This document shows positions 5,145 to 36,519 of a stretch of 39,860 nt of DNA, piece after piece. The DNA lies in UHGV virus genome UHGV-0224961; one strand, 5' to 3'. Source of the DNA: a virus. How positions within the stretch are numbered: the first letter of the stretch is position 1; every line of letters begins with the position of its first letter. Under the pieces are notes generated by a model. That model saw only the letters and a program-made list of their open reading frames with translations, was not told the DNA's origin and searched no databases. The position numbers and the translations under genes were made by a program.

Positions 5145-5234
5145 TTACCTCGGTCTGTTACCGTTGAGGTAATGATTATGCGTATTTGGTTTGGTGTCAA
5201 TAGATATGAGTTAAAAAAATTACCCGTTAGGTAA
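5145..5234. promoter_or_regulatory. OL-like operator cluster: two perfect TTACC-N5-GGTAA palindromes (5158-5172, 5220-5234) plus a TTACC half-site
   Basis: Palindromes lie between the repressor terminator and the first leftward early gene. Confidence 0.6.
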
Positions 5235-5291: not shown

Positions 5292-5876
5292 TTATTGTTT
5301 GTTTTTTTCGTTCTGGTTGATGACAAATTCAATGTAACTTTCGATCTTTGCCTTCTCTGTTTCAGGTAACAATGCGTAGCGCGAGCGGTCATAGTTGATA
5401 GTCGCGGGGTCGTGCGGGTGAATCAGTAATTCATATCCGTGACGCCCAAATGCGGATGCAACATTCTCCAGGGTGGAAATGGAAACGCTGACCTCATTGT
5501 TTAACAGGCGGCTGATTGTTACCTGGGCGACGCCGGATGCGCGGTGAAGTTTTCCCTGCGTTGAAAGGTCGCGGCTTTCGCTCATCCAGCGTTCCAGGTT
5601 GTGAGCCGCCAGTTGACCAATGTCGCTTGGTCCGACAGGCTGAAAACCTTCCTGAGAAAGCGAGCGATCGATATCAAGCCAGTTACGGGGTTTATTGGCG
5701 GCAGCTTCAATTTTTCGCGCAACCTGGTCGCCGATAACCTTCTTGCCAAGAGCCCAGCGGTTTACCAGATTTGCCTGAGTTCCAAGTTTTTCAGCCATCC
5801 GCGTCTGAACACCATTGAATTCACGGTCGATCAAGTCGTTGAGATTTTGCCTGCGGACGTCCTGGATACTTTTCAT
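5292..5876 (-). CDS. CI-like repressor with two HTH-like regions and no S24 peptidase domain
   Basis: 194 aa; N-terminal XRE-type HTH (TRMAEKLGTQANLVNRWALGKK); second HTH-like segment (ASGVAQVTISRLLNNE); no G-S-M / Lys autocleavage motifs seen; flanked by operator clusters. Confidence 0.75.
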   Translation of the reverse strand: MKSIQDVRRQNLNDLIDREFNGVQTRMAEKLGTQANLVNRWALGKKVIGDQVARKIEAAANKPRNWLDIDRSLSQEGFQPVGPSDIGQLAAHNLERWMSESRDLSTQGKLHRASGVAQVTISRLLNNEVSVSISTLENVASAFGRHGYELLIHPHDPATINYDRSRYALLPETEKAKIESYIEFVINQNEKNKQ

Positions 5877-6030: not shown

Positions 6031-6261
6031 ATGAGCGATAACGGACATTTCGATTTCAAAAAGCACTGGCTTGCACTTACTCCGGATGAGCGTGAAGCCT
6101 TCGCACAGGAAGCCGGAACGACGAGTCACTATATCCAGACTCACTTAACAGGTAAGCGCAAAATGCCAGGTAAGGTATTGATGAATGGGCTTTTTAAAGC
6201 CTGTAAATCAAGACAATGGCTGCGCTCAAAAGCAGAACTGGCATACTTCTTCTACTCATGA
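6031..6261 (+). CDS. Cro-like HTH protein
   Basis: 76 aa; divergent from the repressor; HTH-like segment LTPDEREAFAQEAGTTSHYIQTHLTGKRK. Confidence 0.65.
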   Translation: MSDNGHFDFKKHWLALTPDEREAFAQEAGTTSHYIQTHLTGKRKMPGKVLMNGLFKACKSRQWLRSKAELAYFFYS

Positions 6262-6411
6262 TATCCAGCCACAACCCTCTGTAGACCGCCATCCGGCGGT
6301 CTTTTCATATCTATTCGCACCTTGAGGGTAATAAAAAACCAAATGTGGTTGATCTTTTTTTTGTGTCAGCACAAAATGACCGTAATCCCAATACAAATAA
6401 CAGGGCTTACC

Positions 6412-6612
6412 ATGGAAATCATTACACGTATTGATGCCGCAAAGCGCGGACTTAAACGCTACTACACCGGAAAACCATGTAAGCACGGACATGACAGTGA
6501 ACGCTGGGTTTACAACGGACACTGTGTTGAGTGCACCATGGAATCAAACCGTCGTATCAGGGCAGAGATTAAGCAGATCATGATTAATTCCTCCCCACAA
6601 CATTCAAGCTGA
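6412..6612 (+). CDS. Small Cys/His-rich putative zinc-binding protein
   Basis: 66 aa from ATG 6412 (the track ORF extends to 6322); CKHGH...HCVEC cluster. Confidence 0.45.
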   Translation: MEIITRIDAAKRGLKRYYTGKPCKHGHDSERWVYNGHCVECTMESNRRIRAEIKQIMINSSPQHSS

Positions 6613-6627
6613 TAGCGGAGATTAATC

Positions 6628-7419
6628 ATGAGCAGACATGCAACAGATTGGGCCTGGGAGACAGATCCAGGTAGCTCGTCATTAAAGCTCATACTGCTCT
6701 CGATGGCTGACAGAGCAGATGAATATAACCTCTGCTACCCCAGCATAGAACGCCTCGTTAAAGACACTTGCCTGAATAAAAAAACCGTGCAGGCCGGGCT
6801 TATATCGCTCATGAAAATGGGGCTTATTTCAGATACCGGAGAGAGAAAGGGAGCGACAAAAAGAGTGCGGGTTTTCTCTCTTAATATAACCAAAAACGGG
6901 AACATTAAAGGCAACCGGGAGGGGGGCAATGAACCCGAAAACGGTAATGTTACCGAAAACGGGAATATACCCAAAAACGGGATGTTGAATGATCCCAAAA
7001 ACGGGATCCAGAACCAGTCATATAACCAGTCATTTAACCAAGAGAGGGAGAGCAGGACAAAAAACGGGGATTCTGTGCATCATGACCCCAACGCAAACAA
7101 CGCCGTGATGAATAACTTTGTTCCTCCTGGTGGGCCAGGGCAATTAGGCAAATTTGTCATGCATGAACAATGGCAGCCATCAGATGACTTTCTTCGGAAA
7201 AGCTCATTGCAGGGGATCTACCTGGACAGTCTGCCAACGGCACAGGAACTTGCAGAGTTCAGAATTTACTGGATGGCTGAGGGTAAGGCATACCATCAGG
7301 CACAGTGGGAGCAGAAGCTGGCAAGGCGGCTGCAGATTAGCAGACAGAAGCAATCAACATTACCTGATAACAACGTTCCGCACTGGAACAGCCCTGAAGC
7401 ATGGGAGGATTTCTTGTGA
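6628..7419 (+). CDS. Replication initiator (lambda O-like role; N-terminal winged-HTH-like domain)
   Basis: 263 aa; iterons embedded in the central coding region; immediately upstream of the P-like gene. Confidence 0.7.
   Translation: MSRHATDWAWETDPGSSSLKLILLSMADRADEYNLCYPSIERLVKDTCLNKKTVQAGLISLMKMGLISDTGERKGATKRVRVFSLNITKNGNIKGNREGGNEPENGNVTENGNIPKNGMLNDPKNGIQNQSYNQSFNQERESRTKNGDSVHHDPNANNAVMNNFVPPGGPGQLGKFVMHEQWQPSDDFLRKSSLQGIYLDSLPTAQELAEFRIYWMAEGKAYHQAQWEQKLARRLQISRQKQSTLPDNNVPHWNSPEAWEDFL
6889..7070. repeat. Origin-like iteron array inside the initiator gene
   Basis: Six or more copies of CC(C/G)AAAACGG(G/T)A at 6890, 6934, 6953, 6970, 6994 and 7057, followed by a direct repeat aaccagtcat x2 (7012-7033). 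Confidence 0.6.
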
Positions 7420-8201
7420 ACAACGTTTTTACCGCGATACAAAACCGTGACGGAGAAGCCCTTTCTCGCATGTCAGGTTATGAGCATCAGTACGTCAACA
7501 ATGACAATGTGGTGAACATGTCAGCAGAGAGGCTTGTTGATGCTCTTTTCAAACAGCTGAAACAGCTGTTTCCGGCGGCAGTGGTAACCAACCTGAAGAC
7601 GCCAGAGCAGGAAGTTGCTGCAAAACAGCAGTGGATTGCTGCGTTTGCCGAAGGTGGGATCCGAACCCGTGAACAGGTTTCTGCTGGTATGCGCCACGCC
7701 CGCGCCAGTGAATCTCCGTTCTGGCCGTCGCCAGGGCAATTTATCAAGTGGTGCAAAGACAGCAAGATGGTTCTTGGCGTCACCATTGACGATGTGATGG
7801 CGGAGTTTCACCGGTACAGCAAGGAAAAAAGTTTATATCCTGGTGGTCCCGAAAGATTCCCGTGGCGACATCCGGTTATGTACTGGGTCGTATGTGATAC
7901 CCGCCGTGCAATGTATCAGCGCCAGCTTAGCGAGATTGAGGTTGAGAAACACGCGCGCAGGCTGCTCGATGATTGGGCGAAAAAGGTGGCTTCCGGACAG
8001 CAGATACCCGATCCGGTGATCAGCATACAGGCAAAGCCAGAACCCATGAGTACGCCTCCGGACACAGGGAGAGACGTTTACCATCCACCAGGGCGAAGTT
8101 TCGGGTGTATGCCTAACGCCGCCACCCTGGGGGGAATAACACCGGCGCAGTGGCTGATGGAGGAATACAGGCGGGGAAAGGCGGCAGGATTTATCAAGTA
8201 A
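7416..8201 (+). CDS. Replication protein P-like (DnaB helicase loader)
   Basis: SPGQFIKWCKD and FPWRHPVMYWVV match lambda P segments as recalled; GTG 7416 with GGAGGA RBS, overlapping the initiator stop. Confidence 0.8.
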   Translation: MNNVFTAIQNRDGEALSRMSGYEHQYVNNDNVVNMSAERLVDALFKQLKQLFPAAVVTNLKTPEQEVAAKQQWIAAFAEGGIRTREQVSAGMRHARASESPFWPSPGQFIKWCKDSKMVLGVTIDDVMAEFHRYSKEKSLYPGGPERFPWRHPVMYWVVCDTRRAMYQRQLSEIEVEKHARRLLDDWAKKVASGQQIPDPVISIQAKPEPMSTPPDTGRDVYHPPGRSFGCMPNAATLGGITPAQWLMEEYRRGKAAGFIK

Positions 8202-8206
8202 TACCA

Positions 8207-8226
8207 GCGCGATAGCGCATTTTTTT
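8207..8226 (+). terminator. Weak terminator-like hairpin with T-run after the P-like gene
   Basis: gcgc-gata-gcgc followed by tttttt; stem only 4 bp. Confidence 0.3.
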
Positions 8227-8238
8227 ACGCCCACATGA

Positions 8239-8315
8239 TTACCTGATGGGTAATAAAATATTCTAGTATCTATTGATTTCATGTCTTATGTGGTTTTTAA
8301 TTACCTAAGGGGTAA
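8239..8315. promoter_or_regulatory. Two perfect TTACC-N5-GGTAA palindromes (8239-8253, 8301-8315) bracketing a TATCTA-N14-TATGTGGTT promoter-like motif
   Basis: Second palindrome ends 3 nt before the ATG at 8319. Confidence 0.55.
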
Positions 8316-8318
8316 ATC

Positions 8319-8663
8319 ATGAGAAAACAGATACAGGCTCTTGGTCGGCTCAAAACAGGCCAGATGAACAAAACAGAATCTGCGTATTGCCAGCACCTTG
8401 AGCTGCGTAAACGTGCAGGGGAAATCGCATGGTATCGATTCGAGGGTATCAAGCTGCGGTTAGCTGACAACACGTTCTATACGCCAGATTTCGCTGTGAT
8501 GCTCGCCACCGGAGAGATGGAACTGCACGAAGTGAAAGGTTTCTGGACCGACGACGCCAGGGTGAAAACCAAAGTCGCCGCAGATCAGTATCCGTTCCGA
8601 ATCATCGGGGTAACGGTTAAACCAAAGAAAGCAGGTGGTGGCTGGAACATCGAAGAGTTCTGA
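8319..8663 (+). CDS. Small PD-(D/E)xK-like nuclease (VRR-NUC/DUF1064-like)
   Basis: 114 aa; PDF...ELHEVKG arrangement consistent with a D-E-K nuclease core. Confidence 0.5.
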   Translation: MRKQIQALGRLKTGQMNKTESAYCQHLELRKRAGEIAWYRFEGIKLRLADNTFYTPDFAVMLATGEMELHEVKGFWTDDARVKTKVAADQYPFRIIGVTVKPKKAGGGWNIEEF

Positions 8664-8724
8664 ATCGACGATCTTTTTAGTTATCAATGTAATCAATAAG
8701 TTATGTGGATAAGCGAGGGTAAAG

Positions 8725-9153
8725 ATGGAAAGTAATATCAAAGGGTTAGTTGCCGCCGGGCATGAGATGGCTTCGGAACTGAAAGCAGAATGTGGTGCCG
8801 TTGATATGCGCAGTGTGGCAAAGCTGATCAGCGATTTGGCAACGCAACTGGAAGTGCAACTGGTGCGTGCTAATGCGCTGGCGGCGGAGAATGCAAAGCT
8901 GAAGAAGTTCTGCAAAGACGCTGCATTCGATGCCGATTACGAAGCAGAGCTAGGTATGGAGCGTGGTGGATTCAGTGATGCGCTTAACGAAATCAAAACC
9001 CCAGCCACCGATGCTTTTCTGGCTGAAGTACGGGCGCAGGGCGTGGAGATGGCTATGGAACATATGCAGTCGAGCGGTTCGTTAACATTTGGAGATTGCT
9101 ACATATCACTTAACGAGTTCGCCGCAGAGCTTCGCAAAGGAGGCAGCCAGTGA
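8725..9153 (+). CDS. Ea22-like family protein (paralog 1)
   Basis: C-terminal ATDAFLAEVRAQGV...FAAELRKGGSQ shared with the ORF at 10263. Confidence 0.55.
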   Translation: MESNIKGLVAAGHEMASELKAECGAVDMRSVAKLISDLATQLEVQLVRANALAAENAKLKKFCKDAAFDADYEAELGMERGGFSDALNEIKTPATDAFLAEVRAQGVEMAMEHMQSSGSLTFGDCYISLNEFAAELRKGGSQ

Positions 9154-9638
9154 CTGGAAATGCAGCAATCCTCGACATGTGCTGTGGCAGTCGCATGTTC
9201 TGGTTCGATAAGAATGACGACCGGGCGATATTTAGCGATATCAGAAAGGAAGAGCACACATTATGTGATGGACGACGCCTGATTATCAGTCCTGACCTGA
9301 TAGCTGATTTTCGTGCACTACCATTTGCAGACGCATCCTTTTCGATGGTTGTATTCGACCCTCCGCATCTTGAGCGTGTTGGTGATAACGCCTGGATGGG
9401 AAAGAAATATGGACGGCTGAATAAAGATACCTGGCGTGATGATTTGCGGCAGGGGTTTAAAGAAGCCTTTCGGGTGTTGTGGCCACACGGCGTTCTGATT
9501 TTTAAATGGAATGAAACGCAAATACCTGTTCGCCAGATATTGGCACTGACCGACAGAAAGCCTGTTATCGGTCAACGAACAGGAAAGGGTGACAAGACCC
9601 ACTGGATTATTTTTATGAAGGAGGCATCCAGTGAGTAA
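9150..9638 (+). CDS. Putative DNA amino-methyltransferase (DPPH motif)
   Basis: 162 aa; LDMCCGS (motif I-like) and VVFDPPH (motif IV-like); GTG start 6 nt after AAAGGAGG. Confidence 0.55.
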   Translation: MTGNAAILDMCCGSRMFWFDKNDDRAIFSDIRKEEHTLCDGRRLIISPDLIADFRALPFADASFSMVVFDPPHLERVGDNAWMGKKYGRLNKDTWRDDLRQGFKEAFRVLWPHGVLIFKWNETQIPVRQILALTDRKPVIGQRTGKGDKTHWIIFMKEASSE

Positions 9639-10275
9639 CCGTTTTTACATGATGTGCTTGCGTGAAACTGTGGGTAATAACGCCTCATTCCATTGCCATA
9701 ACGGCAATGGTTACAGTTCTGATATCGATCGCGCTCATGTTTACACGCTAGAAGAAGCCCAAAAAGCCTGGAATTGTGGGCGAGATATCGATCAGCCTGT
9801 TTGTGCCGATAGTGTGGATGCAATTGCTGTGTGGCACGTTGATTGCCAGTACATCCCTACAGAAAGCCTGATTGAGTCAGATTGCACTGCGTATGTGGCC
9901 TACAAAAAAGGTAGCTGGAACGGCAACGATGTTTACTGGCTTCAACACGGTGGATTGCCAACAGATGATTTCAGTAAAGCGACCATCTTTAGCGTCGCCA
10001 ACAAAAACGAACCAGGAATAGTTTGGTTGCCATTTCCCATTGCTGATGCAGCAAAGCGCCGGACGTTCAATATCAATAACTTTAACCGCAGAACAATGGT
10101 TCAGGGCGCAGGTTTGGTCATGCCTGACTGGTTGAAAGAGCAGAACAGAAGAAAGAAGTCGCGAAGCGGGAAGGTGCGTTGGAATTGTCCGCATTGCGGA
10201 AAAATCACCTGGCAGTACAGCCCATATGATTTTGAAGGCTGTAGTGATTACAACTGTGAAGGATGGCGAGAATGA
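9631..10275 (+). CDS. Hypothetical protein with C-terminal zinc-ribbon (CPHCG...C..C)
   Basis: 214 aa; overlapping gene starts typical of phage operons. Confidence 0.5.
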   Translation: MSNRFYMMCLRETVGNNASFHCHNGNGYSSDIDRAHVYTLEEAQKAWNCGRDIDQPVCADSVDAIAVWHVDCQYIPTESLIESDCTAYVAYKKGSWNGNDVYWLQHGGLPTDDFSKATIFSVANKNEPGIVWLPFPIADAAKRRTFNINNFNRRTMVQGAGLVMPDWLKEQNRRKKSRSGKVRWNCPHCGKITWQYSPYDFEGCSDYNCEGWRE

Positions 10276-10955
10276 CAATTGACTATCAGGTACTGCGCGA
10301 GGCGGCGGAACAGGCAACGCAAGATGAATGGGTAGCATATATTTTGCCGGGGCAAAACGGCACTTATCCTGCGCATACGTCTGAGGGTAGGCATTGCGGA
10401 TACTTTATTGACTGGCCTGGCATTGATGGACAGAGAAACGCTGGTGCCAATGCCCGTTATATCGCGGCTATCCCACCCAAAGTTGTGCTGGCTCTACTGG
10501 ATGAAATTAAGCGCCTGGAGGACACAAATATTGATGCTATGTGTCGAATTGCAGAGCTTGAGACTAATCTCGCGGCGCTGGTGGCGGAGAATGTGGGGCT
10601 AAAGGCGATATGTGATGACCGTCGCAGGTTCATCATGAATGGGGTGCAGATGGGTTATATCAAGGTGCCAGCAGCGGAAACAGATCCAGACCTTGAGACA
10701 ATTCGCATTGCTATATCACCACAAAAGCCCATTCCAGCCACTGATGCTTTCCTGTCTGAAGTGTGGGCGCAGGGGGTGGATGCTGCTATAGAAGCTGCAA
10801 AAAATCTGGTGGTCCAAGAATATGAGTATAAGGATTTCAAAGCGGCGCAGAGTGATTGCTGTATGCACCCTGGTTCAGACCTGGTAGGGAAGGTTGAAAT
10901 GACTGAGTGGTTAGTTGACTTTGCTGCCCAGCTTCGCAAAGGAGGCAACCAGTGA
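10263..10955 (+). CDS. Ea22-like family protein (paralog 2, mosaic)
   Basis: N-terminus IDYQVLREAAEQA resembles the ORF at 10952; C-terminus resembles the ORF at 8725. Confidence 0.55.
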   Translation: MARMTIDYQVLREAAEQATQDEWVAYILPGQNGTYPAHTSEGRHCGYFIDWPGIDGQRNAGANARYIAAIPPKVVLALLDEIKRLEDTNIDAMCRIAELETNLAALVAENVGLKAICDDRRRFIMNGVQMGYIKVPAAETDPDLETIRIAISPQKPIPATDAFLSEVWAQGVDAAIEAAKNLVVQEYEYKDFKAAQSDCCMHPGSDLVGKVEMTEWLVDFAAQLRKGGNQ

Positions 10956-11377
10956 GCGAAATTAATTACCAGGCACTGCGTGAGGCAGCACAGAACGCGA
11001 AAGATTTAGGTGAGATTAAGAATTACAAGCGAGGTGAGCAAGCTGTTGCCGAATTTGAGTCCTTAATAACGCCACGCATTGTGCTGGCGCTTCTGGATGA
11101 ACGGGAAAGAAACCAGCAATACATAAAACGCCGCGACCAGGAGAACGAGGATATTGCTCTTACTGTTGGGAAGCTGCGTGTTGAGCTTGAAGCCGCAGAG
11201 AAGCGCATTGCAGAACTGTCTGCTAGCCACAGCAAATTGCGCGACACAATGGCTGGCATCCACAACACAATCCGAATGGATGGCGGCTATACGCCACTGG
11301 CAGCAATCCTTAACGCTGCTAAACGCGCATATGAAGAATCAGCAAGCGCAGCTGGCATTCGCATCAAAGGAGAGTGA
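10952..11377 (+). CDS. Ea22-like family protein (paralog 3), coiled-coil
   Basis: N-terminus INYQALREAAQ and PRIVLALLDE shared with paralog 2. Confidence 0.55.
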   Translation: MSEINYQALREAAQNAKDLGEIKNYKRGEQAVAEFESLITPRIVLALLDERERNQQYIKRRDQENEDIALTVGKLRVELEAAEKRIAELSASHSKLRDTMAGIHNTIRMDGGYTPLAAILNAAKRAYEESASAAGIRIKGE

Positions 11378-11580
11378 GTGATATGGATAAAAATACCCCT
11401 GCTTACTGGAGTTTATCACTTGATACCGAATGTCCCAAATGTGGTCACAATTTCGATCTGCTTTGTGATCCAGATTTTTGGGAGTTTTCTGGAGCTAAAC
11501 AGGCATGTGAAGAAATAAAAGGTTACGAAACATGCTGTCCAGAATGTAACCATGAATTTAAAACAGATTTCGTGTATTGA
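11374..11580 (+). CDS. Small zinc-ribbon protein (CPKCG...CPEC)
   Basis: 68 aa with two CxxC pairs. Confidence 0.5.
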   Translation: MSDMDKNTPAYWSLSLDTECPKCGHNFDLLCDPDFWEFSGAKQACEEIKGYETCCPECNHEFKTDFVY

Positions 11581-11590
11581 GGCATAACAA

Positions 11591-12493
11591 ATGACCACTA
11601 TTACCAAAGAACAACTAATTGATCATATTAATGATCGCAAAGATGTCCGTCAGAGAATGTTGGATACCGCGACGGTTTCTTCTGGATTCCGAGAATATCT
11701 TGAAAGAGAACTTGCCACCGATCAGATTGCTCTGGCGTCGCTGGAAGCTGAACCTGTCCTGTATCAGTCCTGCACTCGCCCCACCTGGAATAGCGGTGTT
11801 CCGTGGACGGAATGGAAAGAACGTAGTCGTGAGGGCTACGAAGACGATTTGCGCTTTACAGACACGCCTGACCATGCCGGTTGGATATACAAATGTCGAA
11901 AACTATATACCACTCCGCCAGCGCCGATAGCGTTAGAGTCCATTGAAAACGCAATTGAATACATCCGCAGTATCGCTTTTCACATCGATGAAGACGATTA
12001 CCACGGCAAACATATTGCGTATTTCATGCAGCAAGCATTGGCCTGGCTGGAAGGGCATTCATGCAGCGACGACAGACTGGGTAAAGCCGAGAATCAACCA
12101 GTACGCGGCAACCAGGCTGCCGAATCCAATCGCGGTAATGAGTGGACTGGCAATCCTGATATTGATAACGCCATCATCATGCTCGACCGCATAGATACGG
12201 CGGAAAGTTGCGATGATGACCGTATTGAGGCTGTTAAGGCTGTTTTGCGTAGACTGGCTGGCAACTATCCGGTAACTCCGGATGGTTGGATAAGCTGTAG
12301 TGAGCGAATGCCGGAAGACACCAAAATGTTACTGGCATTTAGTCAAGGTGAAATCGTGGCCGCATATTGGAACTGGGTTGTAAATCCAATTGATTACAAA
12401 AAATATAGAGCTTTCACGTATTTATCAGGATATATCTTGGATGACGTAACTCACTGGATGCCGCTACCAGAACCTCCGCAGGAGGTGAAGTGA
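11591..12493 (+). CDS. DUF551-domain phage protein
   Basis: C-terminal WISCSERMPE...HWMPLPEPP signature recalled for DUF551. Confidence 0.55.
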   Translation: MTTITKEQLIDHINDRKDVRQRMLDTATVSSGFREYLERELATDQIALASLEAEPVLYQSCTRPTWNSGVPWTEWKERSREGYEDDLRFTDTPDHAGWIYKCRKLYTTPPAPIALESIENAIEYIRSIAFHIDEDDYHGKHIAYFMQQALAWLEGHSCSDDRLGKAENQPVRGNQAAESNRGNEWTGNPDIDNAIIMLDRIDTAESCDDDRIEAVKAVLRRLAGNYPVTPDGWISCSERMPEDTKMLLAFSQGEIVAAYWNWVVNPIDYKKYRAFTYLSGYILDDVTHWMPLPEPPQEVK

Positions 12494-12843
12494 TGGACTA
12501 TTCACAGTTAAGTGATTTTGAAATTAACAGAATGGTAGGAGACATAATTTTTAAAGGCCTTTGGGCGTGTAAACCGGAAACATCAGGGAATAACACCAAC
12601 AAATGGTATTACGGAAATACTGATACAACTTTTGAGCCATTAAACCCTTTACCTGACTACTGCAATAATCCATCGGATGCATGGCCTATTATTGTTGATA
12701 ATAAAATCAGTCTAACCTGCCACCAATCTCGCGGTGAGTGGTCAGCTGTTTTTAATACCGAGAATATTTGCTTTCATGCGAATAATCCACTCCGAGCCGC
12801 CATGATTGTATTTCTCATGATGCAGGAAAATCAGAATGGCTAA
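12490..12843 (+). CDS. NinX-like (DUF2591-like) protein
   Basis: N-terminus MDYSQLSDFEINRMV resembles NinX family proteins as recalled. Confidence 0.4.
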   Translation: MMDYSQLSDFEINRMVGDIIFKGLWACKPETSGNNTNKWYYGNTDTTFEPLNPLPDYCNNPSDAWPIIVDNKISLTCHQSRGEWSAVFNTENICFHANNPLRAAMIVFLMMQENQNG

Positions 12844-13174
12844 ATCAGCAGCAGAGCGCAAAGCCGCTCAGAGAGCCAGACAAGCTGCATCTGGTGTGCG
12901 TAAGCTGGAAATTGTGCTTGATGCTCAGGAAATTGAAATGCTGGAGCGTAACTGTGCCACGCGTCGCCCCGGGCGTGCGCCTTACGAATTTGGTGAGTAT
13001 ATAGCGTTACTGATCCGCCAGGATGATGCACGCGTGCGCGGGCGTATAAAATCGATCAGCAGAAAATGTTGCGGTAAGTGCGGCGAGAGAGTTCCAGTTA
13101 ATTCATGCCCGTGTAATGGTGACTCGCAATGCTGGATGACTAAAGGCTGGCATGAAACGAAATTAATAGTGTGA
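12836..13174 (+). CDS. Hypothetical protein with C-terminal Cys cluster; candidate regulator
   Basis: 112 aa; basic N-terminus; C-terminal CCGKCG...CPC...C; stop codon lies inside the GTGACATGTCAC palindrome. Confidence 0.5.
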   Translation: MAKSAAERKAAQRARQAASGVRKLEIVLDAQEIEMLERNCATRRPGRAPYEFGEYIALLIRQDDARVRGRIKSISRKCCGKCGERVPVNSCPCNGDSQCWMTKGWHETKLIV

Positions 13175-13182
13175 CATGTCAC
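13171..13182. promoter_or_regulatory. Perfect 12-bp palindrome GTGACATGTCAC at an operon end
   Basis: Same palindrome at 32649-32660 and a variant at 15436-15447. Confidence 0.45.
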
Positions 13183-13223
13183 GAGTAGATTATGCATGAT
13201 GAATTTGATGGGTTTTGAATACT

Positions 13224-13249
13224 GCCGCCAACTATGGCGGCTTTATTTT
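13224..13249 (+). terminator. Rho-independent terminator before the terminase operon
   Basis: gccgcca-acta-tggcggc followed by tttatttt. Confidence 0.65.
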
Positions 13250-13260
13250 GCATGGTACTA

Positions 13261-13293
13261 TTACCACAACGGTAACTATTACCACGGTGGTTA
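13261..13293. promoter_or_regulatory. Operator-like TTACC-ACAAC-GGTAA (13261-13275) plus imperfect TTACC-ACGGT-GGTTA (13279-13293) immediately upstream of terS
   Basis: Same palindrome family as at the repressor gene. Confidence 0.5.
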
Positions 13294-13295
13294 TG

Positions 13296-13889
13296 ATGCC
13301 TGCTGAACCTAAAACCTATAAACGCAAATCAACGCAATTTAAGCCACTAACAGCAATGCAGGAGGCTTATTGCCAGTCATACATCAAAACGCCTGAAAAC
13401 CAGACTCAGGCAGCGATTAACGCAGGATTCTCCCCAAATACAGCGGCAGTTAAAGCCAGTGTCATGATGCGCGATGAACGCATTCAAAAACGGATTGCCG
13501 AGTTGATGGAGGAGCGCAACAAACGAATGCGCGTCAGTGCTGATTACGTTCTCATGCGCCTGGTGGAGATCGACCAGATGGACGTGATAGACATCCTCAA
13601 CGACGATGGGAGCCTTAAACCAATCCGCGAGTGGCCGAAAATCTGGCGCACTACGCTTAGCGGCTTTGATCTGTCATCGACCATCATGAACATGAACGAG
13701 GATTCGATAGAGACAATCCTCAAAAAAATTAAATGGCCTGACAAGGTGAAGAACCTTGAGCTGATTGGTAAGCACGTCGATGTCAATGCATTCAAAGAAC
13801 GCCTGGATGTTAATGTGAATGTGACAATTGCTGATCGCATAGCGGCAGCCAGGAAGAGACTGAAAGAACGTCAGGATGGCAATCAGTGA
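13296..13889 (+). CDS. Terminase small subunit
   Basis: Directly upstream of and overlapping TerL; start taken at ATG 13293/13296 (the track ORF begins at a TTG at 13215 that runs through the operator and terminator). Confidence 0.65.
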   Translation: MPAEPKTYKRKSTQFKPLTAMQEAYCQSYIKTPENQTQAAINAGFSPNTAAVKASVMMRDERIQKRIAELMEERNKRMRVSADYVLMRLVEIDQMDVIDILNDDGSLKPIREWPKIWRTTLSGFDLSSTIMNMNEDSIETILKKIKWPDKVKNLELIGKHVDVNAFKERLDVNVNVTIADRIAAARKRLKERQDGNQ

Positions 13890-15361
13890 CAGATGCAGCG
13901 TTATCTCCTGAAGAGCAGTTGATCGAGGATATTGCAGGGTTCACTCACGATCCGCTTGGCTATGCCCTCTATGCGTTCCCGTGGGGGGAAGAGGGGACTG
14001 AATTAGCACATGCCACCGGTCCACGTCAGTGGCAGGCTGATGCGTTCAGAGAGATACGTGATCACCTGCAGAATCCAGAGACGCGATATCAGCCGCTTAT
14101 GCTGGCACGTGCTTCTGGTCACGGTATTGGTAAATCCGCATTCATCTCAATGCTGATCAACTGGGGCATGTCCACTTGCGAGGATTGTAAGGTCGTGGTG
14201 ACCGCCAACACCGACAACCAGCTACGAACGAAGACCTGGCCGGAAATTATCAAGTGGTCGAACCTTGCTATCACGAAAGACTGGTTTACCTGTACCGCTA
14301 CCGCGATGTACAGCAATGACCCTGGGCACGACAAGCGGTGGCGAGCTGACGCAATCCCTTGGTCTGAGCACAACACTGAGGCATTCGCCGGACTACACAA
14401 CGAGCGCAAACGCATCATCGTGGTATTCGATGAGGCGTCGAACATTGCGGATCTGGTGTGGGAAGTTGCCGAGGGTGCGCTAACGGACGAAGACACTGAG
14501 ATTATCTGGGTGGCGTTCGGAAACCCGACGCGTAATACCGGACGTTTCCGCGAATGTTTCCGCAAATATAAACACCGCTGGAAAACTGCGCAGATTGACA
14601 GCCGGACGGTGGAAGGCACTAACAAACAGCAGTTGCAGAAATGGGTTGATGACTACGGGGAAGACAGCGACTTCGTTAAAATCCGTGTGCGCGGCATATT
14701 CCCGGATGCATCTGAATTGCAGTTTATCCCTACCGGACTTACTGACGAGGCAATGAAACGGGTGGTCACCGCTGCGCAGGTGGCACATGCTCCGGTGATA
14801 ATCGGCGTTGACCCGGCATACTCCGGCGTTGATGACGCTGTGATATACCTGCGGCAGGGGCTGCACAGTAAGGTGCTGTGGACTGGCAACAAGACCACTG
14901 ACGATCTGATTATGGCGAAGCGTATCGCTGACTTTGAAGACCAGTACCAGGCTGACGCGGTGTTCATCGACTTCGGTTACGGTACCGGGCTGAAGTCAAT
15001 CGGTGACGGTTGGGGGCGTACATGGCAACTTGTTCCGTTCGGTGGCGCGTCTACTGACCCGCAGATGCTAAACAAGCGCGGGGAGATGTTCAACAGCTGC
15101 AAAACGTGGCTGAAGCTGGGCGGGATGCTGGATGACCAGGAAACAGCGGACGACCTGTCGGCGGCAGAGTACAAAGTTCGCGTGGACGGTAAAATCGTTA
15201 TCGAACCGAAGGAAGATATCAAGGAGCGGCTTGGGCGTTCGCCGGGTAAAGGCGATGCGCTACTGCTGACGTTTGCTTTCCCTGTGTCTAAGCGCCTGCG
15301 AATTCCCGGGCAGCAGAACCAGCAAGGTAAGGCCATCACAGATTACGATCCCTATGCTTAA
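13886..15361 (+). CDS. Terminase large subunit
   Basis: 491 aa; Walker A-like ARASGHGIGKS; C-terminal nuclease-like domain with acidic residues; GTG start overlapping the terS stop. Confidence 0.9.
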   Translation: MTDAALSPEEQLIEDIAGFTHDPLGYALYAFPWGEEGTELAHATGPRQWQADAFREIRDHLQNPETRYQPLMLARASGHGIGKSAFISMLINWGMSTCEDCKVVVTANTDNQLRTKTWPEIIKWSNLAITKDWFTCTATAMYSNDPGHDKRWRADAIPWSEHNTEAFAGLHNERKRIIVVFDEASNIADLVWEVAEGALTDEDTEIIWVAFGNPTRNTGRFRECFRKYKHRWKTAQIDSRTVEGTNKQQLQKWVDDYGEDSDFVKIRVRGIFPDASELQFIPTGLTDEAMKRVVTAAQVAHAPVIIGVDPAYSGVDDAVIYLRQGLHSKVLWTGNKTTDDLIMAKRIADFEDQYQADAVFIDFGYGTGLKSIGDGWGRTWQLVPFGGASTDPQMLNKRGEMFNSCKTWLKLGGMLDDQETADDLSAAEYKVRVDGKIVIEPKEDIKERLGRSPGKGDALLLTFAFPVSKRLRIPGQQNQQGKAITDYDPYA

Positions 15362-15411
15362 TCCGCTGGTGGGGATAATGTCGTTGATATCCTCTGATGA
15401 GGATAAAACAA

Positions 15412-15447
15412 AGCCAGCTTATCGGCTGGCTGTTTGTGACGTGTCAC
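15412..15447 (+). terminator. Hairpin (agccagc/gctggct) followed by palindrome GTGACGTGTCAC downstream of TerL
   Basis: Weak T-run; may act as a partial terminator or protein-binding site. Confidence 0.3.
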
Positions 15448-15488
15448 GACATTAAAATCCATCGAATTCGTATTTCATGATTCACACC

Positions 15489-15514
15489 TTAAAAAAATGC
15501 CCGGCGAACCGGGC
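15489..15514 (-). terminator. Rho-independent terminator on the minus strand
   Basis: gcccgg-cgaa-ccgggc with a 7-A run on plus (U-run on minus). Confidence 0.55.
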
Positions 15515-15591
15515 GAACTGGAAGCAATGAGTTATGCCTTCCGTGGCTGTACTGGTTTACAGCATGAAGTCATCGCAATGGCGTCCTGCTG

Positions 15592-15634
15592 TAAAAAGGG
15601 CGGTGATAGTCCTTCAAGGGAAACCATCACCGCC
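15592..15634 (-). terminator. Minus-strand terminator-like hairpin about 45 nt 3' of the tRNA
   Basis: 9-bp stem ggcggtgat/atcaccgcc followed on minus by UUUUU. Confidence 0.5.
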
Positions 15635-15677
15635 AAGCCCCTGGAACTTCTGGCATCACGGTCCTTAGGCGTGATTC

Positions 15678-15754
15678 TGGCGTGGCATGCAGGATTCGAA
15701 CCTGCGACCAACCGCTTAGAAGGCGGTTGCTCTGTCCAACTGAGCTAATGCCAC
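15678..15754 (-). tRNA. tRNA-Arg (anticodon UCU), phage-encoded
   Basis: Reverse complement folds as a canonical 77-nt cloverleaf: acceptor GTGGCAT/ATGCCAC, D-stem GCTC/GAGC, anticodon stem ACCGC/GCGGT, loop CTTCTAA, T-stem GCAGG/CCTGC, TTCGAAT loop, discriminator G, CCA encoded. Confidence 0.85.
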
Positions 15755-16076
15755 AACGCTGAGAGCACTTAGCCTGTTAAGGCGCCACACTTTGTCGCGG
15801 CTCCATAAATGCTCTCATCGTTGTACCCTCGTCTCTTCCGAGGCGTCACACCGAATCGCCGGGATGGTGAATCCCCGTGCGCGGAATAAAACCGCTCGAC
15901 TTGCACATTCCGGCTACCTGGTTCGTTTGCCCGAGCAAGGGAGGGTGCCCCTTAAACGTATCCAGACCGCTATCGTCGCATGTGCCATACGCCGTACTGC
16001 TCAAAATAAAAGCTCACTCCACCTGTTCAATTTAACGACAAGCCAGTCAGGTTAGTAACTGGAATGAACTCTTTGG

Positions 16077-16143
16077 TTACCTGAAAGGTAATAATTCTCG
16101 CGTTAAATGTCAACTATCTACGATAAATAAATCATATGTGGTT
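16077..16143. promoter_or_regulatory. Perfect operator TTACC-TGAAA-GGTAA (16077-16091) plus TATCTA-N14-TATGTGGTT motif (16115-16143) upstream of the head operon
   Basis: A minus-strand TTGACA -35-like hexamer at 16108-16113 points leftward toward the tRNA. Confidence 0.5.
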
Positions 16144-16181
16144 AAATTGGTAATAATTTAATTGCGTACGGAGTCATTGAT

Positions 16182-21888: not shown

Positions 21889-24359
21889 TGGCTATCAGTT
21901 GGATCCAGCCCAGCTTTGCCGGTGGTGAGATTGGACCGTCGTTGTACGGTCGTATCGACATGGCGAAGTACCAGGTGGCATTGCGCAAGTGCGATAACTT
22001 TATCGTGCGGCAGTATGGCGGCGTTGAGAATCGACCTGGTACGCGTTTTGTCGGTGCCGCCAAATACCCAAATCGGAAATGCCGCCTGATCCCGTTCCAG
22101 TTCTCGACGGTTCAGACTTATGCTCTGGAGTTCGGACACCAGTACATGCGCGTTATCAAAGATGGTGCGTTGGTGCTGAACAGCAGCAATGTTATTTATG
22201 AAATTGCCACGCCATATACTGAAGCCGATCTGTACCGAATTAAATTCACGCAAAGCGCAGACGTGCTTACGCTGGTTCATCCGGCATACCCGCCGAAAGA
22301 GTTGCGCCGCTATGCGCATGACAACTGGCAACTGGTTGATGTGGTAACGAAGAACGGGCCATTTGAAGATATCAATATTGACGATTCAGTGACGGTTTAT
22401 GCCAGCGCCAGCACCGGGACAATTACGTTAACGGCAAGCGCCTCAATTTTTGGCGCGGAGCAGGTAGGCAAATTGTTCTATCTGGAACAGCCTGCAGTGG
22501 ATTCTGTGCCGGTATGGGAAACCAGTAAGAGTACGTCGATTGGCGATATTCGCCGTGCAGACAGTAACTACTATCGCGCCGTTACAGCAGGCAAAACAGG
22601 CACTTTGCGCCCTTCGCATACAGAAGGCACATCATGGGATGGCTGGGGCGGATCCGGTGATGATGATACCGGCATTGAGTGGGAGTATCTGCACAGTGGT
22701 TTTGGCATTGCCCGTATCTCTGCTGCAAATGGAACTACTGCAACTGCCGAGGTGATTTCCTATATCCCTTCGCAGGTAGTTGGCGAGGATAATGCCAGCT
22801 ATAAATGGGCTAAATATGCCTGGAACAGTATTAACGGTTATCCTGGCACTGTTGTTTATTATCAACAACGCCTTTACTTCGCCGCATCGACTGCGTTCCC
22901 TCAGACTATCTGGGCCAGCCGTACCGGGGATTATAAGGATTTTGGCAAAAGCAATCCTACGCAGGATGACGACAGAATTATCTACACCTATGCCGGGCGT
23001 CAGGTTAATGAGATCCGTCACCTGATTGATGTTGGTTCGCTGGTGGCGCTGACTTCCGGAGGTGAGTACGTCATCACTGGCGACCAGAACAAAGTGCTTA
23101 CCCCATCATCATTTGCATTCAGCTCTCAGGGATCAAATGGCTCGAGCAATATCCCACCAATTGCCGTGGCGAATATTGCTCTGTTCGTCCAGGAGAAAGG
23201 CAGTGTTGTCCGTGATCTGGCCTACTCATTCGATGTTGACGGCTATCAGGGGAACGACCTGACCATCCTTGCCAATCATCTTTTTCAGAAGCACAGCATT
23301 GTTGACTGGTGCTTCTCGATTGTCCCTTACTCCAGCGCCTTCTGCATTCGTGATGACGGTAAATTACTGGTGATGACATATTTGCGTGATCAGCAGGTTT
23401 TTGCATGGGCACCACAATCCAGTACCGGAAAATATGAAAGCACATGCAGTATCAGCGAAGGCAATGAAGATGCGGTGTATTTCGTCGTTAACCGAACCGT
23501 TAACGGGCAAACAGTGAGATACATAGAGCGACTGTCCAGCCGTTTATTTACCAGCGATGAAGATGCTTTCTTTGTTGATTCTGGCCTTAGCTATGATGGA
23601 AGAAATACGTCTGACAGAACGATGATCGTCACTGGTGGTTCTGGCGAATGGGATTACCGCGCGGAATATACAATCAGTGTTTCTGGTGGTGCGTACTTCA
23701 CCAGTAGTGATGTCGGTGCTCAACTACAGTTCCCGTATACCGGAACTGATCCTGATACTGGCGATGAAGTGTCAAAAGAATTACGTTGCGACATCATTTC
23801 TGTAACCAGCAATACCGCTGTAGTGGTTCGTGCTAACAGGAACGTCCCGCCATCCCTCAGGAATGTGGCTACCACGAACTGGCAGATGGCGCGCCGGACA
23901 TTTGGAGGCCTGTCTCATCTTGAAGGCCAGACCGTAAACATTCTCTCTGATGCGAACGTGGAACCACAGAAAGTGGTTTCCGGAGGTGCCGTCACGCTGG
24001 AATCACCTGGGGCTGTTGTGCACATCGGCCTGCCAATAACTGCTGAATTCGAAACACTGGATATCAACATTAACGGACAGGAAACGCTGCTGGACAAAAA
24101 ACAGGTGATCCCGTCCGTTACTCTGGTTGTGAATGCCAGTCGCGGCATCTGGGCGACTACGCCCGGCGGTAAATGGTACGAATATCCACAGCGTGAATTC
24201 GAGTTCTACGATGATCCTGTTGATGACGCTACCGGAAAAGTAGAAGTGAAACTGGACAGTAACTGGGGCAAAAACGGACGTGTAAGAATCCGTCAGCTTG
24301 ACCCGTTGCCGCTGTCTGTTCTTGCCGTTATTCCTCGTCTTACTGTTGGGGGATTCTGA
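21888..24359 (+). CDS. Tail tubular protein B-like (T7 gp12-like nozzle)
   Basis: 823 aa; N-terminus with GGEIGPS resembles the gp12 N-terminus as recalled. Confidence 0.6.
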   Translation: MAISWIQPSFAGGEIGPSLYGRIDMAKYQVALRKCDNFIVRQYGGVENRPGTRFVGAAKYPNRKCRLIPFQFSTVQTYALEFGHQYMRVIKDGALVLNSSNVIYEIATPYTEADLYRIKFTQSADVLTLVHPAYPPKELRRYAHDNWQLVDVVTKNGPFEDINIDDSVTVYASASTGTITLTASASIFGAEQVGKLFYLEQPAVDSVPVWETSKSTSIGDIRRADSNYYRAVTAGKTGTLRPSHTEGTSWDGWGGSGDDDTGIEWEYLHSGFGIARISAANGTTATAEVISYIPSQVVGEDNASYKWAKYAWNSINGYPGTVVYYQQRLYFAASTAFPQTIWASRTGDYKDFGKSNPTQDDDRIIYTYAGRQVNEIRHLIDVGSLVALTSGGEYVITGDQNKVLTPSSFAFSSQGSNGSSNIPPIAVANIALFVQEKGSVVRDLAYSFDVDGYQGNDLTILANHLFQKHSIVDWCFSIVPYSSAFCIRDDGKLLVMTYLRDQQVFAWAPQSSTGKYESTCSISEGNEDAVYFVVNRTVNGQTVRYIERLSSRLFTSDEDAFFVDSGLSYDGRNTSDRTMIVTGGSGEWDYRAEYTISVSGGAYFTSSDVGAQLQFPYTGTDPDTGDEVSKELRCDIISVTSNTAVVVRANRNVPPSLRNVATTNWQMARRTFGGLSHLEGQTVNILSDANVEPQKVVSGGAVTLESPGAVVHIGLPITAEFETLDININGQETLLDKKQVIPSVTLVVNASRGIWATTPGGKWYEYPQREFEFYDDPVDDATGKVEVKLDSNWGKNGRVRIRQLDPLPLSVLAVIPRLTVGGF

Positions 24360-36113: not shown

Positions 36114-36123
36114 TAATAAATGC

Positions 36124-36160
36124 AATAACCCCGAATAAAACAGCGGGGTTATTGTTATTA
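36124..36160 (+). terminator. Terminator hairpin after the tailspike
   Basis: 10-bp stem aataaccccg/cggggttatt followed by T-rich sequence. Confidence 0.55.
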
Positions 36161-36519
36161 TAATAATGCTCTTAACTTCTTAAATGATATTTATATGCAC
36201 TTAGATTATTAAATCTATATTATGCCTGTTATTTATGTGTTCTGTTATATGTTTTGCAGGCACTGTTGGCAGCATTAAAGGAAATTGTATTTATGGCGAA
36301 ATAGCTGGTATCGTGTTTTTATTGTGCGTAAAAATAACAGACTGCATATATTATTGTATAAAGTTTTGGAAATGAAAACACTCAAACTTACCGCTGTGGA
36401 TATGTTTTGACCATCGCGAATTGGATTGGTAATATTGGGTAACAAAAAACCATAAATGGTTTATCATGCGTAATGCTTTACTGTTCAGGAGGTAGTTATG
36501 CATATAAACGGTGGAAAAC

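Follow-up and report, generated by a model that had tools for sequence, protein, structure and literature searches.

A variable gene block between the replication and packaging genes of an epsilon15/phiV10-type prophage of Escherichia coli, a probable counterpart of lambdoid accessory regions

The viral genome UHGV-0224961, analysed here over its whole length of 39,860 nucleotides (nt; hereafter the window), is a complete epsilon15/phiV10-type prophage of E. coli, genus Uetakevirus, and contains at positions 8319-13174 a block of small genes that is the subject of this report. The gene order is that of the epsilon15 and phiV10 records, comprising integrase, leftward early genes, repressor, replication genes, the block, terminase, portal, head, tail and lysis genes. 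As a first-pass annotation made from the letters alone had placed it, the block lies between replication and packaging genes, with DnaT-like and lambda-P-like genes (the latter, repP, at 7401-8201) on one side and the terminase genes, beginning with the small terminase gene terS, on the other. The closest DNA matches to the block occur in phages ZX5, HEMP4, TL-2011b and phiV10 and in thousands of E. coli chromosomes, and the epsilon15 and phiV10 records already annotate an equivalent block between replication protein P and the small terminase.

Ten open reading frames on the + strand (p1-p10) fill 8319-13174; the eleven genes first reported reflect a miscount, because the gene list given at the time itself sums to ten. 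The description of the genes as tightly coupled holds, given that seven of the nine junctions overlap by 4-13 nt and that the GTG or ATG start codons are preceded by strong AAGGAGG-type Shine-Dalgarno sequences. The junctions comprise a single 61-nt gap after p1, followed in order by spacings of -4, -8, -13, -4, -4, +10, -4 and -8 nt.

The content of the block differs greatly from one close relative to the next. The relatives comprise 80 IMG/VR loci, fetched with a small terminase 99-100% identical to that of the window, plus the closest E. coli genome, and the slot was taken as the sequence from repP to terS, complete in 59 cases including the window. These 59 relatives carry 58 distinct slot sequences of 1737-5790 bp, the proteins of which fall into 76 protein clusters. 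When tiles of the window were compared with 48 loci having 9 kb on either side, tiles 8751-12750 were present in 0-17% of the relatives, whereas the flanking tiles 8001-8750 and 13001-15250 were present in 96-100% at 93-99% identity. Within the 18 kb surrounding the packaging genes of this very common E. coli prophage type, the block is the most pronounced hotspot of variability. At the protein level, the clusters of the inner genes recur in only 3-8 of the 58 slot versions (the methyltransferase p3 in three, p4 in four, p7 in five, the p8 type in three and the NinX protein p9 in eight), and coverage of the block reaches at most 34% in any phage record and at most 70% in any complete E. coli genome.

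The eight inner genes (p2-p9, 8725-12843) are exchangeable cargo, and repP, p1, p10 and terS form a conserved core on either side of them, found in 96-100% of the relatives with identities of 95-99%. The proposal of a variable accessory slot is borne out by this comparison of gene content, which the first-pass annotation had itself called for; the view of the whole block as cargo stands for p2-p9 and fails for p1 and p10, which are conserved core genes. The opposite possibility, that all the genes are conserved replication or recombination accessory functions with no meaningful variability, describes the two end genes, namely the DUF1064 nuclease and the gp49-like regulator, and is refuted for 8725-12843 by the frequencies given above, so that as an account of the block it is extremely improbable.

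The left end gene, p1 (8319-8663, +), matches Pfam DUF1064 (PF06356, 31 bits against a gathering cut-off of 24.7) and phrog_190, 'Holliday junction resolvase' (7e-43), which agrees with its earlier labelling as a PD-(D/E)xK-like nuclease, a fold predicted for DUF1064 by Kosinski et al. (PMC1189080). Catalytic-type residues can be read from the protein as E20, P56-D57 and E71-V72-K73, and the best matches in the PDB, albeit weak (E 0.2-1.3), are to T7 endonuclease I. Of the 58 slot versions, 56 contain the gene, with identities of 96-100%. In epsilon15, a RuvC-type Holliday-junction resolvase (35987-36451 of that genome) occupies the position held by the DUF1064 nuclease in the window and phiV10, and this non-orthologous replacement at a fixed position supports a resolvase role; p1 is a likely Holliday-junction resolvase.

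The right end gene, p10 (12836-13174, +), encodes a basic, Cys-rich protein of 112 residues that matches phrog_536 (3.8e-54), occurs in 57 of the 58 slot versions and is homologous to epsilon15 gp49 and phiV10 p55, both of which carry the record label 'transcriptional regulator'. The family comprises 722 detected homologs, the best 120 of which are at least 73% identical across Enterobacterales genera, with C40, C79, C82, C91, C93 and H106 invariant, in line with the Cys-cluster label given earlier.

Among the cargo, four genes encode proteins of the Ea22, Eae and DUF551 types. Of the three proteins first described as Ea22-like paralogs, p5 (10263-10955, +; Pfam 7.4e-21, phrog_368 2e-65) and p6 (10952-11377, +; Pfam 1.1e-21) are indeed members of the Ead/Ea22 family, scoring 75.6 and 78.3 bits, respectively, against a cut-off of 27 for Ead_Ea22 (PF13935), with p5 combining the N-terminal Ead_Ea22 domain with a C-terminal module. 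The third, p2 (8725-9153, +), is an Eae-like mosaic protein that shares with p5 only this C-terminal module (31% identity, E 1.5e-9); it has no Pfam match, hence no Ead_Ea22 domain, and matches phrog_492/614. Its positional equivalents in epsilon15 and phiV10 are annotated Eae-like, and its counterparts among the relatives are 41-100% identical or partial. The DUF551 and NinX-like labels also stand: p8 (11591-12493, +) is an acidic protein of 300 residues with a C-terminal DUF551 domain (Pfam 1.5e-21), and p9 (12490-12843, +) belongs to the NinX (DUF2591) family (Pfam 5.7e-17). In the relatives, DUF551 is fused to Ea22 N-terminal or coiled-coil parts, to dATP/dGTP pyrophosphohydrolase or to unrelated N-terminal regions (e.g., L075:7073-7765); it behaves as a portable C-terminal domain. 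Proteins of the Ea22, Eae and DUF551 types are nearly ubiquitous among the relatives, where they form shuffled mosaics. Two further cargo proteins, p4 and p7, are zinc-ribbon proteins as first described, p7 (11374-11580, +; phrog_4173) being an acidic protein of 68 residues with a weakly YnfU-like N-terminus and the pattern C20xxC23 ... C55xxC58. The acidity of p7, p8 and p9 (pI 4.3-4.8) was considered as a sign of DNA mimicry and set aside as not diagnostic. A search of the block proteins against NCBIfam gave no informative match, and a PDB sequence search with p1, p3, p4, p8, p9, p10 and a methyltransferase profile gave weak or generic matches only.

The cargo gene p3 (9150-9638, +) encodes a S-adenosylmethionine (SAM)-dependent methyltransferase of 162 residues that occupies the space between the Eae-like gene and p4. 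The earlier DPPH-motif label is confirmed by motif I (L8-D9-x-C-C-G13) and motif IV (D70-P71-P72-H73), about 55 residues apart, together with matches to the PADLOC models MTase_II (4.6e-74) and oMTase (5.7e-50) and to phrog_954 (1.3e-88). Both LDxCCG and DPPH are invariant in an alignment of 14 diverse homologs from five bacterial phyla, which disclosed no target-recognition or other extra domain, and a length of 162 residues leaves no room for one. The family comprises at least 7,983 proteins at E <= 1e-10, and the source names of the best 120 homologs are almost all 'class I SAM-dependent methyltransferase'. Homologs at 42-63% identity occur in phages of Gordonia, Staphylococcus, Streptococcus, Listeria, Lactobacillus, Porphyromonas, Vibrio, Acinetobacter and Helicobacter; the family thus spans phages of Actinobacteria, Firmicutes, Bacteroidota, Campylobacterota and Proteobacteria, an unusual degree of conservation. 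Variants of about 248 residues with an extra domain exist in Enterobacterales.

Downstream of p3, p4 (9631-10275, +) encodes a phrog_2457 protein that comprises (i) an N-terminal alpha/beta region, (ii) a basic RRRK linker and (iii) a C-terminal zinc ribbon with four invariant cysteines, C186, C189, C204 and C209. Its AlphaFold model is confident (predicted local distance difference test, pLDDT, 91.9; predicted template modelling score, pTM, 0.79), and the fold has no relative in the PDB or among viral structure models; the family, of about 210-220 residues, is also without a Pfam model. A profile search of 1.84 billion representatives recovered 851 relatives, nearly all of about 200-220 residues, and the longer ones showed no Pfam domain and no informative fusion. 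All homologs are located in the early regions of prophages or of P1-like phage-plasmids, their range extending from Enterobacterales to Acinetobacter and Methyloprofundus, with no conservation of neighbours in Acinetobacter, Methyloprofundus and Yersinia.

The junctions between cargo genes point to a route of exchange. A 17-nt linker, AAGGAGGCANCCAGTGA, unites a Shine-Dalgarno sequence with the TGA that ends one gene and the GTG that starts the following gene, and occurs three times in the window (9137-9153, 9618-9634 and 10939-10955, all +) against 0.03 copies expected. In the 59 relatives, 49 copies fall within slots and none in the 866 kb beyond them. The closest E. coli genome matches the window at 99% identity across 8200-9638 and 11081-13300, which leaves the window with a private insert of 1.44 kb that spans p4, p5 and the first part of p6. 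On its left, this insert ends exactly at the second linker copy, identity ceasing at 9638; on its right, at about 11080 within p6, it ends at a VLALLDE-coding repeat conserved in the Ea22 domain, copies of which lie at 10483 and 11079. We infer that cargo is swapped by homologous recombination at short shared sequences, namely the linkers and the Ea22 repeat, which would fit the established picture of lambdoid mosaicism (e.g., PMC2327257, PMC3945230).

The block is bounded by candidate regulatory elements. The window contains 12 copies of a 15-bp palindrome, TTACC-N5-GGTAA (at 136, 5158, 5220, 5932, 5980, 8239, 8301, 13261, 13279, 16077, 33019 and 36644), against 0.66 expected; the copies at 5158, 5220, 5932 and 5980 flank the repressor gene (5292-5876, minus strand), those at 8239 and 8301 precede the block and those at 13261 and 13279 precede terS. 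Sites labelled 'repressor / lysogeny' in the epsilon15 record, one of them before the resolvase gene, coincide with this motif. The two operator-like palindromes before the block (8239-8253 and 8301-8315, the second over the p1 ribosome-binding site) are 62 bp apart, as is the pair 5158/5220, and recur at fixed offsets in all 59 relatives, where the half-sites are conserved and the spacer varies; in the same 59, no such palindrome falls within the slot. Copies stand at the starts of most transcription units of the window, and a single repressor may shut many units directly, beyond the immunity region.

Upstream of the operator pair, a weak terminator-like hairpin follows repP (8207-8226, +; GCGC-GATA-GCGC and seven T, -8.7 kcal/mol, z -3.2), at a site equivalent to a putative terminator in the phiV10 record. 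The unit is closed by an intrinsic terminator with a 7-bp GC-rich stem and TTTATTTT (13224-13249, +; -16.2 kcal/mol, z -4.2), which is annotated after the p10 counterpart in phiV10 and epsilon15. A weakly supported sigma-70 promoter-like site (13171-13200, +; 9/12 consensus matches) lies just 3' of p10, and such sites are no commoner in the region than expected by chance. Directly before the likely true start of terS stands another pair of operator-like palindromes (13261-13293), corresponding to a 'repressor' site at the same place in the epsilon15 record, which begins terS at the equivalent ATG; these palindromes and the ATG-ATG at 13293, as in epsilon15, suggest that terS probably starts at 13293 and not at the TTG at 13215 chosen by automatic annotation. 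The layout after p10, with promoter-like site, terminator and operators, recalls a promoter-terminator cassette that needs antitermination or a late activator.

Taken with the epsilon15 annotation of the palindromes, this arrangement depicts the block as a predicted repressor-controlled unit that would be shut in the lysogen and switched on by induction or infection: predicted operators at its start and a terminator at its end imply that it should be silent in the lysogen, and such predicted silence argues for functions that benefit the phage over defence functions that protect the lysogen.

We consider it probable that the block is a hypervariable accessory region of the Uetakevirus prophage, functionally the counterpart of the lambdoid ea/nin regions. 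In the corresponding model, the palindromes would serve as operators of the phage repressor, keeping the block off in the lysogen, and the genes would be expressed with the early/middle genes upon induction or infection. Then p1 would resolve recombination or replication junctions, p10 would regulate the late operon that begins just downstream, and p3 would methylate an exocyclic amino group on replicating phage DNA, so that the progeny might escape restriction in the next host. The cargo as a whole would be equipment of benefit to the phage, acquired and lost via homologous recombination at the linkers.

The likeness to the nin/ea (exo-xis / b) regions of lambdoid phages and to the accessory regions described as counter-defence hotspots by Silas et al. 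(bioRxiv 10.1101/2023.04.06.535777) resides in small co-directional genes with conserved flanks and variable content. With the lambdoid regions, the block and its relatives also share the NinX, Ea22/Ead/Eae and DUF551 families and, in relatives, anti-restriction genes such as Lar; the block, which contains NinX, follows the replication genes in a position analogous to that of the nin region. On the other hand, the phage that carries it is a podovirus from another genus, the Q antiterminator, NinB and NinG were not detected in the block, and the candidate late regulator would here be p10.

A closer parallel is the right-arm early block of Uetakevirus itself (epsilon15 gp43-gp49, phiV10 p45-p55), which occupies the same position between the replication protein and terS and preserves the order of junction-resolving nuclease, Eae-like, Ead/Ea22-like, DUF551, small proteins without assigned function, gp49-type regulator and terminator, with the repressor-site motif in front. 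The window differs in its middle, which adds the small methyltransferase, the phrog_2457 protein, the zinc-ribbon protein and NinX, and epsilon15 differs in carrying a RuvC-type resolvase in place of DUF1064 and its DNA methyltransferases elsewhere in the genome. P1-like phage-plasmids (P1/P7 upf87-88 region, 'EaA protein') match parts of 9620-12312 at about 97% DNA identity, among them the phrog_2457 gene and genes of the Ea22/DUF551 type, but in another replicon with other neighbours and over only about 29% of the block. The block is not a new kind of system: its organisation is annotated already in epsilon15 and phiV10, and it represents a new combination of known, mostly uncharacterised families.

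Several observations weigh against this reading or parts of it. A promoter scan between the operators and p1 gave no convincing site, and binding of the repressor to the palindromes is a prediction at the level of annotation. The predicted DNA-binding fold of p10, for which a ribbon-helix-helix was considered, receives no backing from its low-confidence model, the pLDDT of which (57) is too poor for a fold search. Ea22-type genes occur in nearly every relative, which may make them semi-core instead of free cargo, and the searched literature contains no experiment that assigns a function to one of the eight cargo genes. As for p3, NCBI names it solely 'class I SAM-dependent methyltransferase', the Pfam matches of its family are generic (Methyltransf_11/25) with a weak N6_N4_Mtase match in 4 of 14 homologs (best E 0.0035), and the PDB search found no informative solved relative; with generic matches and no informative structure, an RNA, protein or small-molecule substrate is possible.

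Whether the cargo serves defence, counter-defence or other ends was approached through the whole set of slot proteins. The first-pass annotation had offered defence cargo as one option, in which the block would guard the lysogen against other phages, and prophage accessory slots do often hold defence genes; moreover, HNH and PAPS-reductase/DndC-like proteins of the relatives match PADLOC component models. Against this, PADLOC (PADLOC-DB v2) matched only p3 (MTase_II/oMTase) and none of the other nine block proteins, and found no complete defence system in the block or among the 76 slot cluster representatives. In addition, p3 has no adjacent nuclease match (Pfam, PHROG, PADLOC) that could serve as its partner, no opposite-strand or self-promoted moron was found within the block, and the unit sits behind predicted repressor operators. 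Defence cargo is thus not borne out, and we regard it as very unlikely.

The companion suggestion, that of an anti-defence hotspot, fares better. Pfam assigns to the 76 cluster representatives DUF551 (six), Ead_Ea22 (five), DUF4752 (four), dATP/dGTP pyrophosphohydrolase (three, one fused to DUF551), PAPS reductase (one), Lar restriction alleviation (one, 7.8e-9), HNH (one), DUF7739 and DUF977, as well as a weak Mom-like match below the cut-off (1.2e-4), and PADLOC matches among them are limited to the methyltransferase, a PAPS-reductase-like protein (SspD/BrxP/DndC models) and the HNH protein. These contents indicate that the slot is enriched in genes of DNA-modification and anti-restriction types, which supports the hotspot idea at the population level. 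In the window itself, p3 is the one cargo product assignable in this way, with a predicted substrate, and among the window cargo a counter-defence role is plausible only for p3.

For much of the remaining cargo, a different role has to be weighed, namely that most of it (Ea22/Eae/DUF551/NinX) comprises modulators of development or host physiology, like lambda Ea22 of exo-xis, unrelated to defence. Half of the cargo genes (4/8) are of the Ea22/Eae/DUF551 types, and at least one Ea22-type gene is kept in almost every relative. The sole experimental link of the Ea22/DUF551-type family is with the lysis-lysogeny decision: Ea22 of lambda and Stx phages tips the outcome towards lysogeny, and a DUF551 domain is found both in one Ea22 variant and in YfdS, a protein linked with resistance to oxidative stress (PMC10834534); a literature search for DUF551 or NinX in anti-defence found no functional study. 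On the other side, Ea22 itself has a poorly defined function, and extreme cargo turnover and sharing with P1-like and Stx phages across families are typical of arms-race genes; moreover, the modulator view leaves out the methyltransferase and the Lar and PAPS-reductase cargo of the relatives. As an account of most of the cargo it is a real possibility that carries minority weight; for the Ea22/Eae/DUF551 proteins taken by themselves, modulation of the lysis-lysogeny decision or of host physiology is more likely than defence.

The substrate of p3 decides how far a counter-defence reading can extend. In our judgement, p3 is rather probably a minimal amino-methyltransferase that would act on replicating phage DNA and offer anti-restriction protection; with no recognition domain, little or no sequence specificity is predicted. 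It groups with DNA methyltransferases in the REBASE-derived PADLOC models and in PHROG, its family gives the weak N6_N4_Mtase signal, and its homologs lie in replication/recombination modules in 8 of 8 unrelated phages inspected (L089-L096), with primase, SSB, RusA, NinB, a replication initiator or other DNA methylases as neighbours, twice directly adjoining another DNA methylase. All three points speak against the rival in which p3 modifies RNA (e.g., rRNA/tRNA m2G/m6A), protein glutamine or a small molecule instead of DNA. That rival draws on the small size of the enzyme without a recognition domain, on the conservation across phages of Actinobacteria, Firmicutes, Bacteroidota and Proteobacteria, which suggests a universal substrate, and on the generic Pfam matches and best solved relative, a generic class I enzyme; (D/N)PP(F/Y/H) motifs occur in RsmD/HemK-type enzymes too. 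We hold it to be possible though somewhat unlikely. A literature search for the DPPH methyltransferase found no functional study.

If p3 is a DNA methylase, its nearest known counterparts are orphan prophage DNA methyltransferases such as M.EcoGII, a beta-class enzyme of 349 residues with the order DPPY, target-recognition domain, FxGxG (PMC5778455). Like p3, it is prophage-borne, lacks a partner nuclease, has an amino-methyltransferase motif IV and is expected to be silent in the lysogen and protective of phage DNA against restriction. Its size and its leading DPPY differ from p3, in which motif I precedes DPPH and the activity is a prediction; size, motif order and the missing recognition domain rule out p3 as an M.EcoGII-like enzyme.

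For the search for counter-defence functions, the analysis narrows the screen from ten genes to eight, indicates a swapping route by recombination at the reusable 17-nt gene-junction linker and Ea22 motifs, and gives priority to two candidates, the minimal methyltransferase p3 and the orphan-fold phrog_2457 protein p4. That p3, p4 or both represent a new kind of counter-defence or host-takeover factor is a speculative and rather unlikely outcome; if it were true, p3 might be a sequence-independent DNA (or nucleic-acid) methylase with broad protection against restriction.

Other parts of the window display further features. Two secondary variable spots were found in the comparison with the 48 relatives: (i) 6251-7750, where the DnaT-like/P-like replication module is present at the DNA level in only 69-75%, the alternative module being about 82% identical at the protein level, and (ii) 22501-22750, where the tile is found in 15%. 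Between the large terminase and portal genes, a stretch of about 0.8 kb (15361-16160) without a convincing protein gene contains a tRNA-Arg(TCT) at 15678-15754 and three terminator-like hairpins, all on the minus strand.

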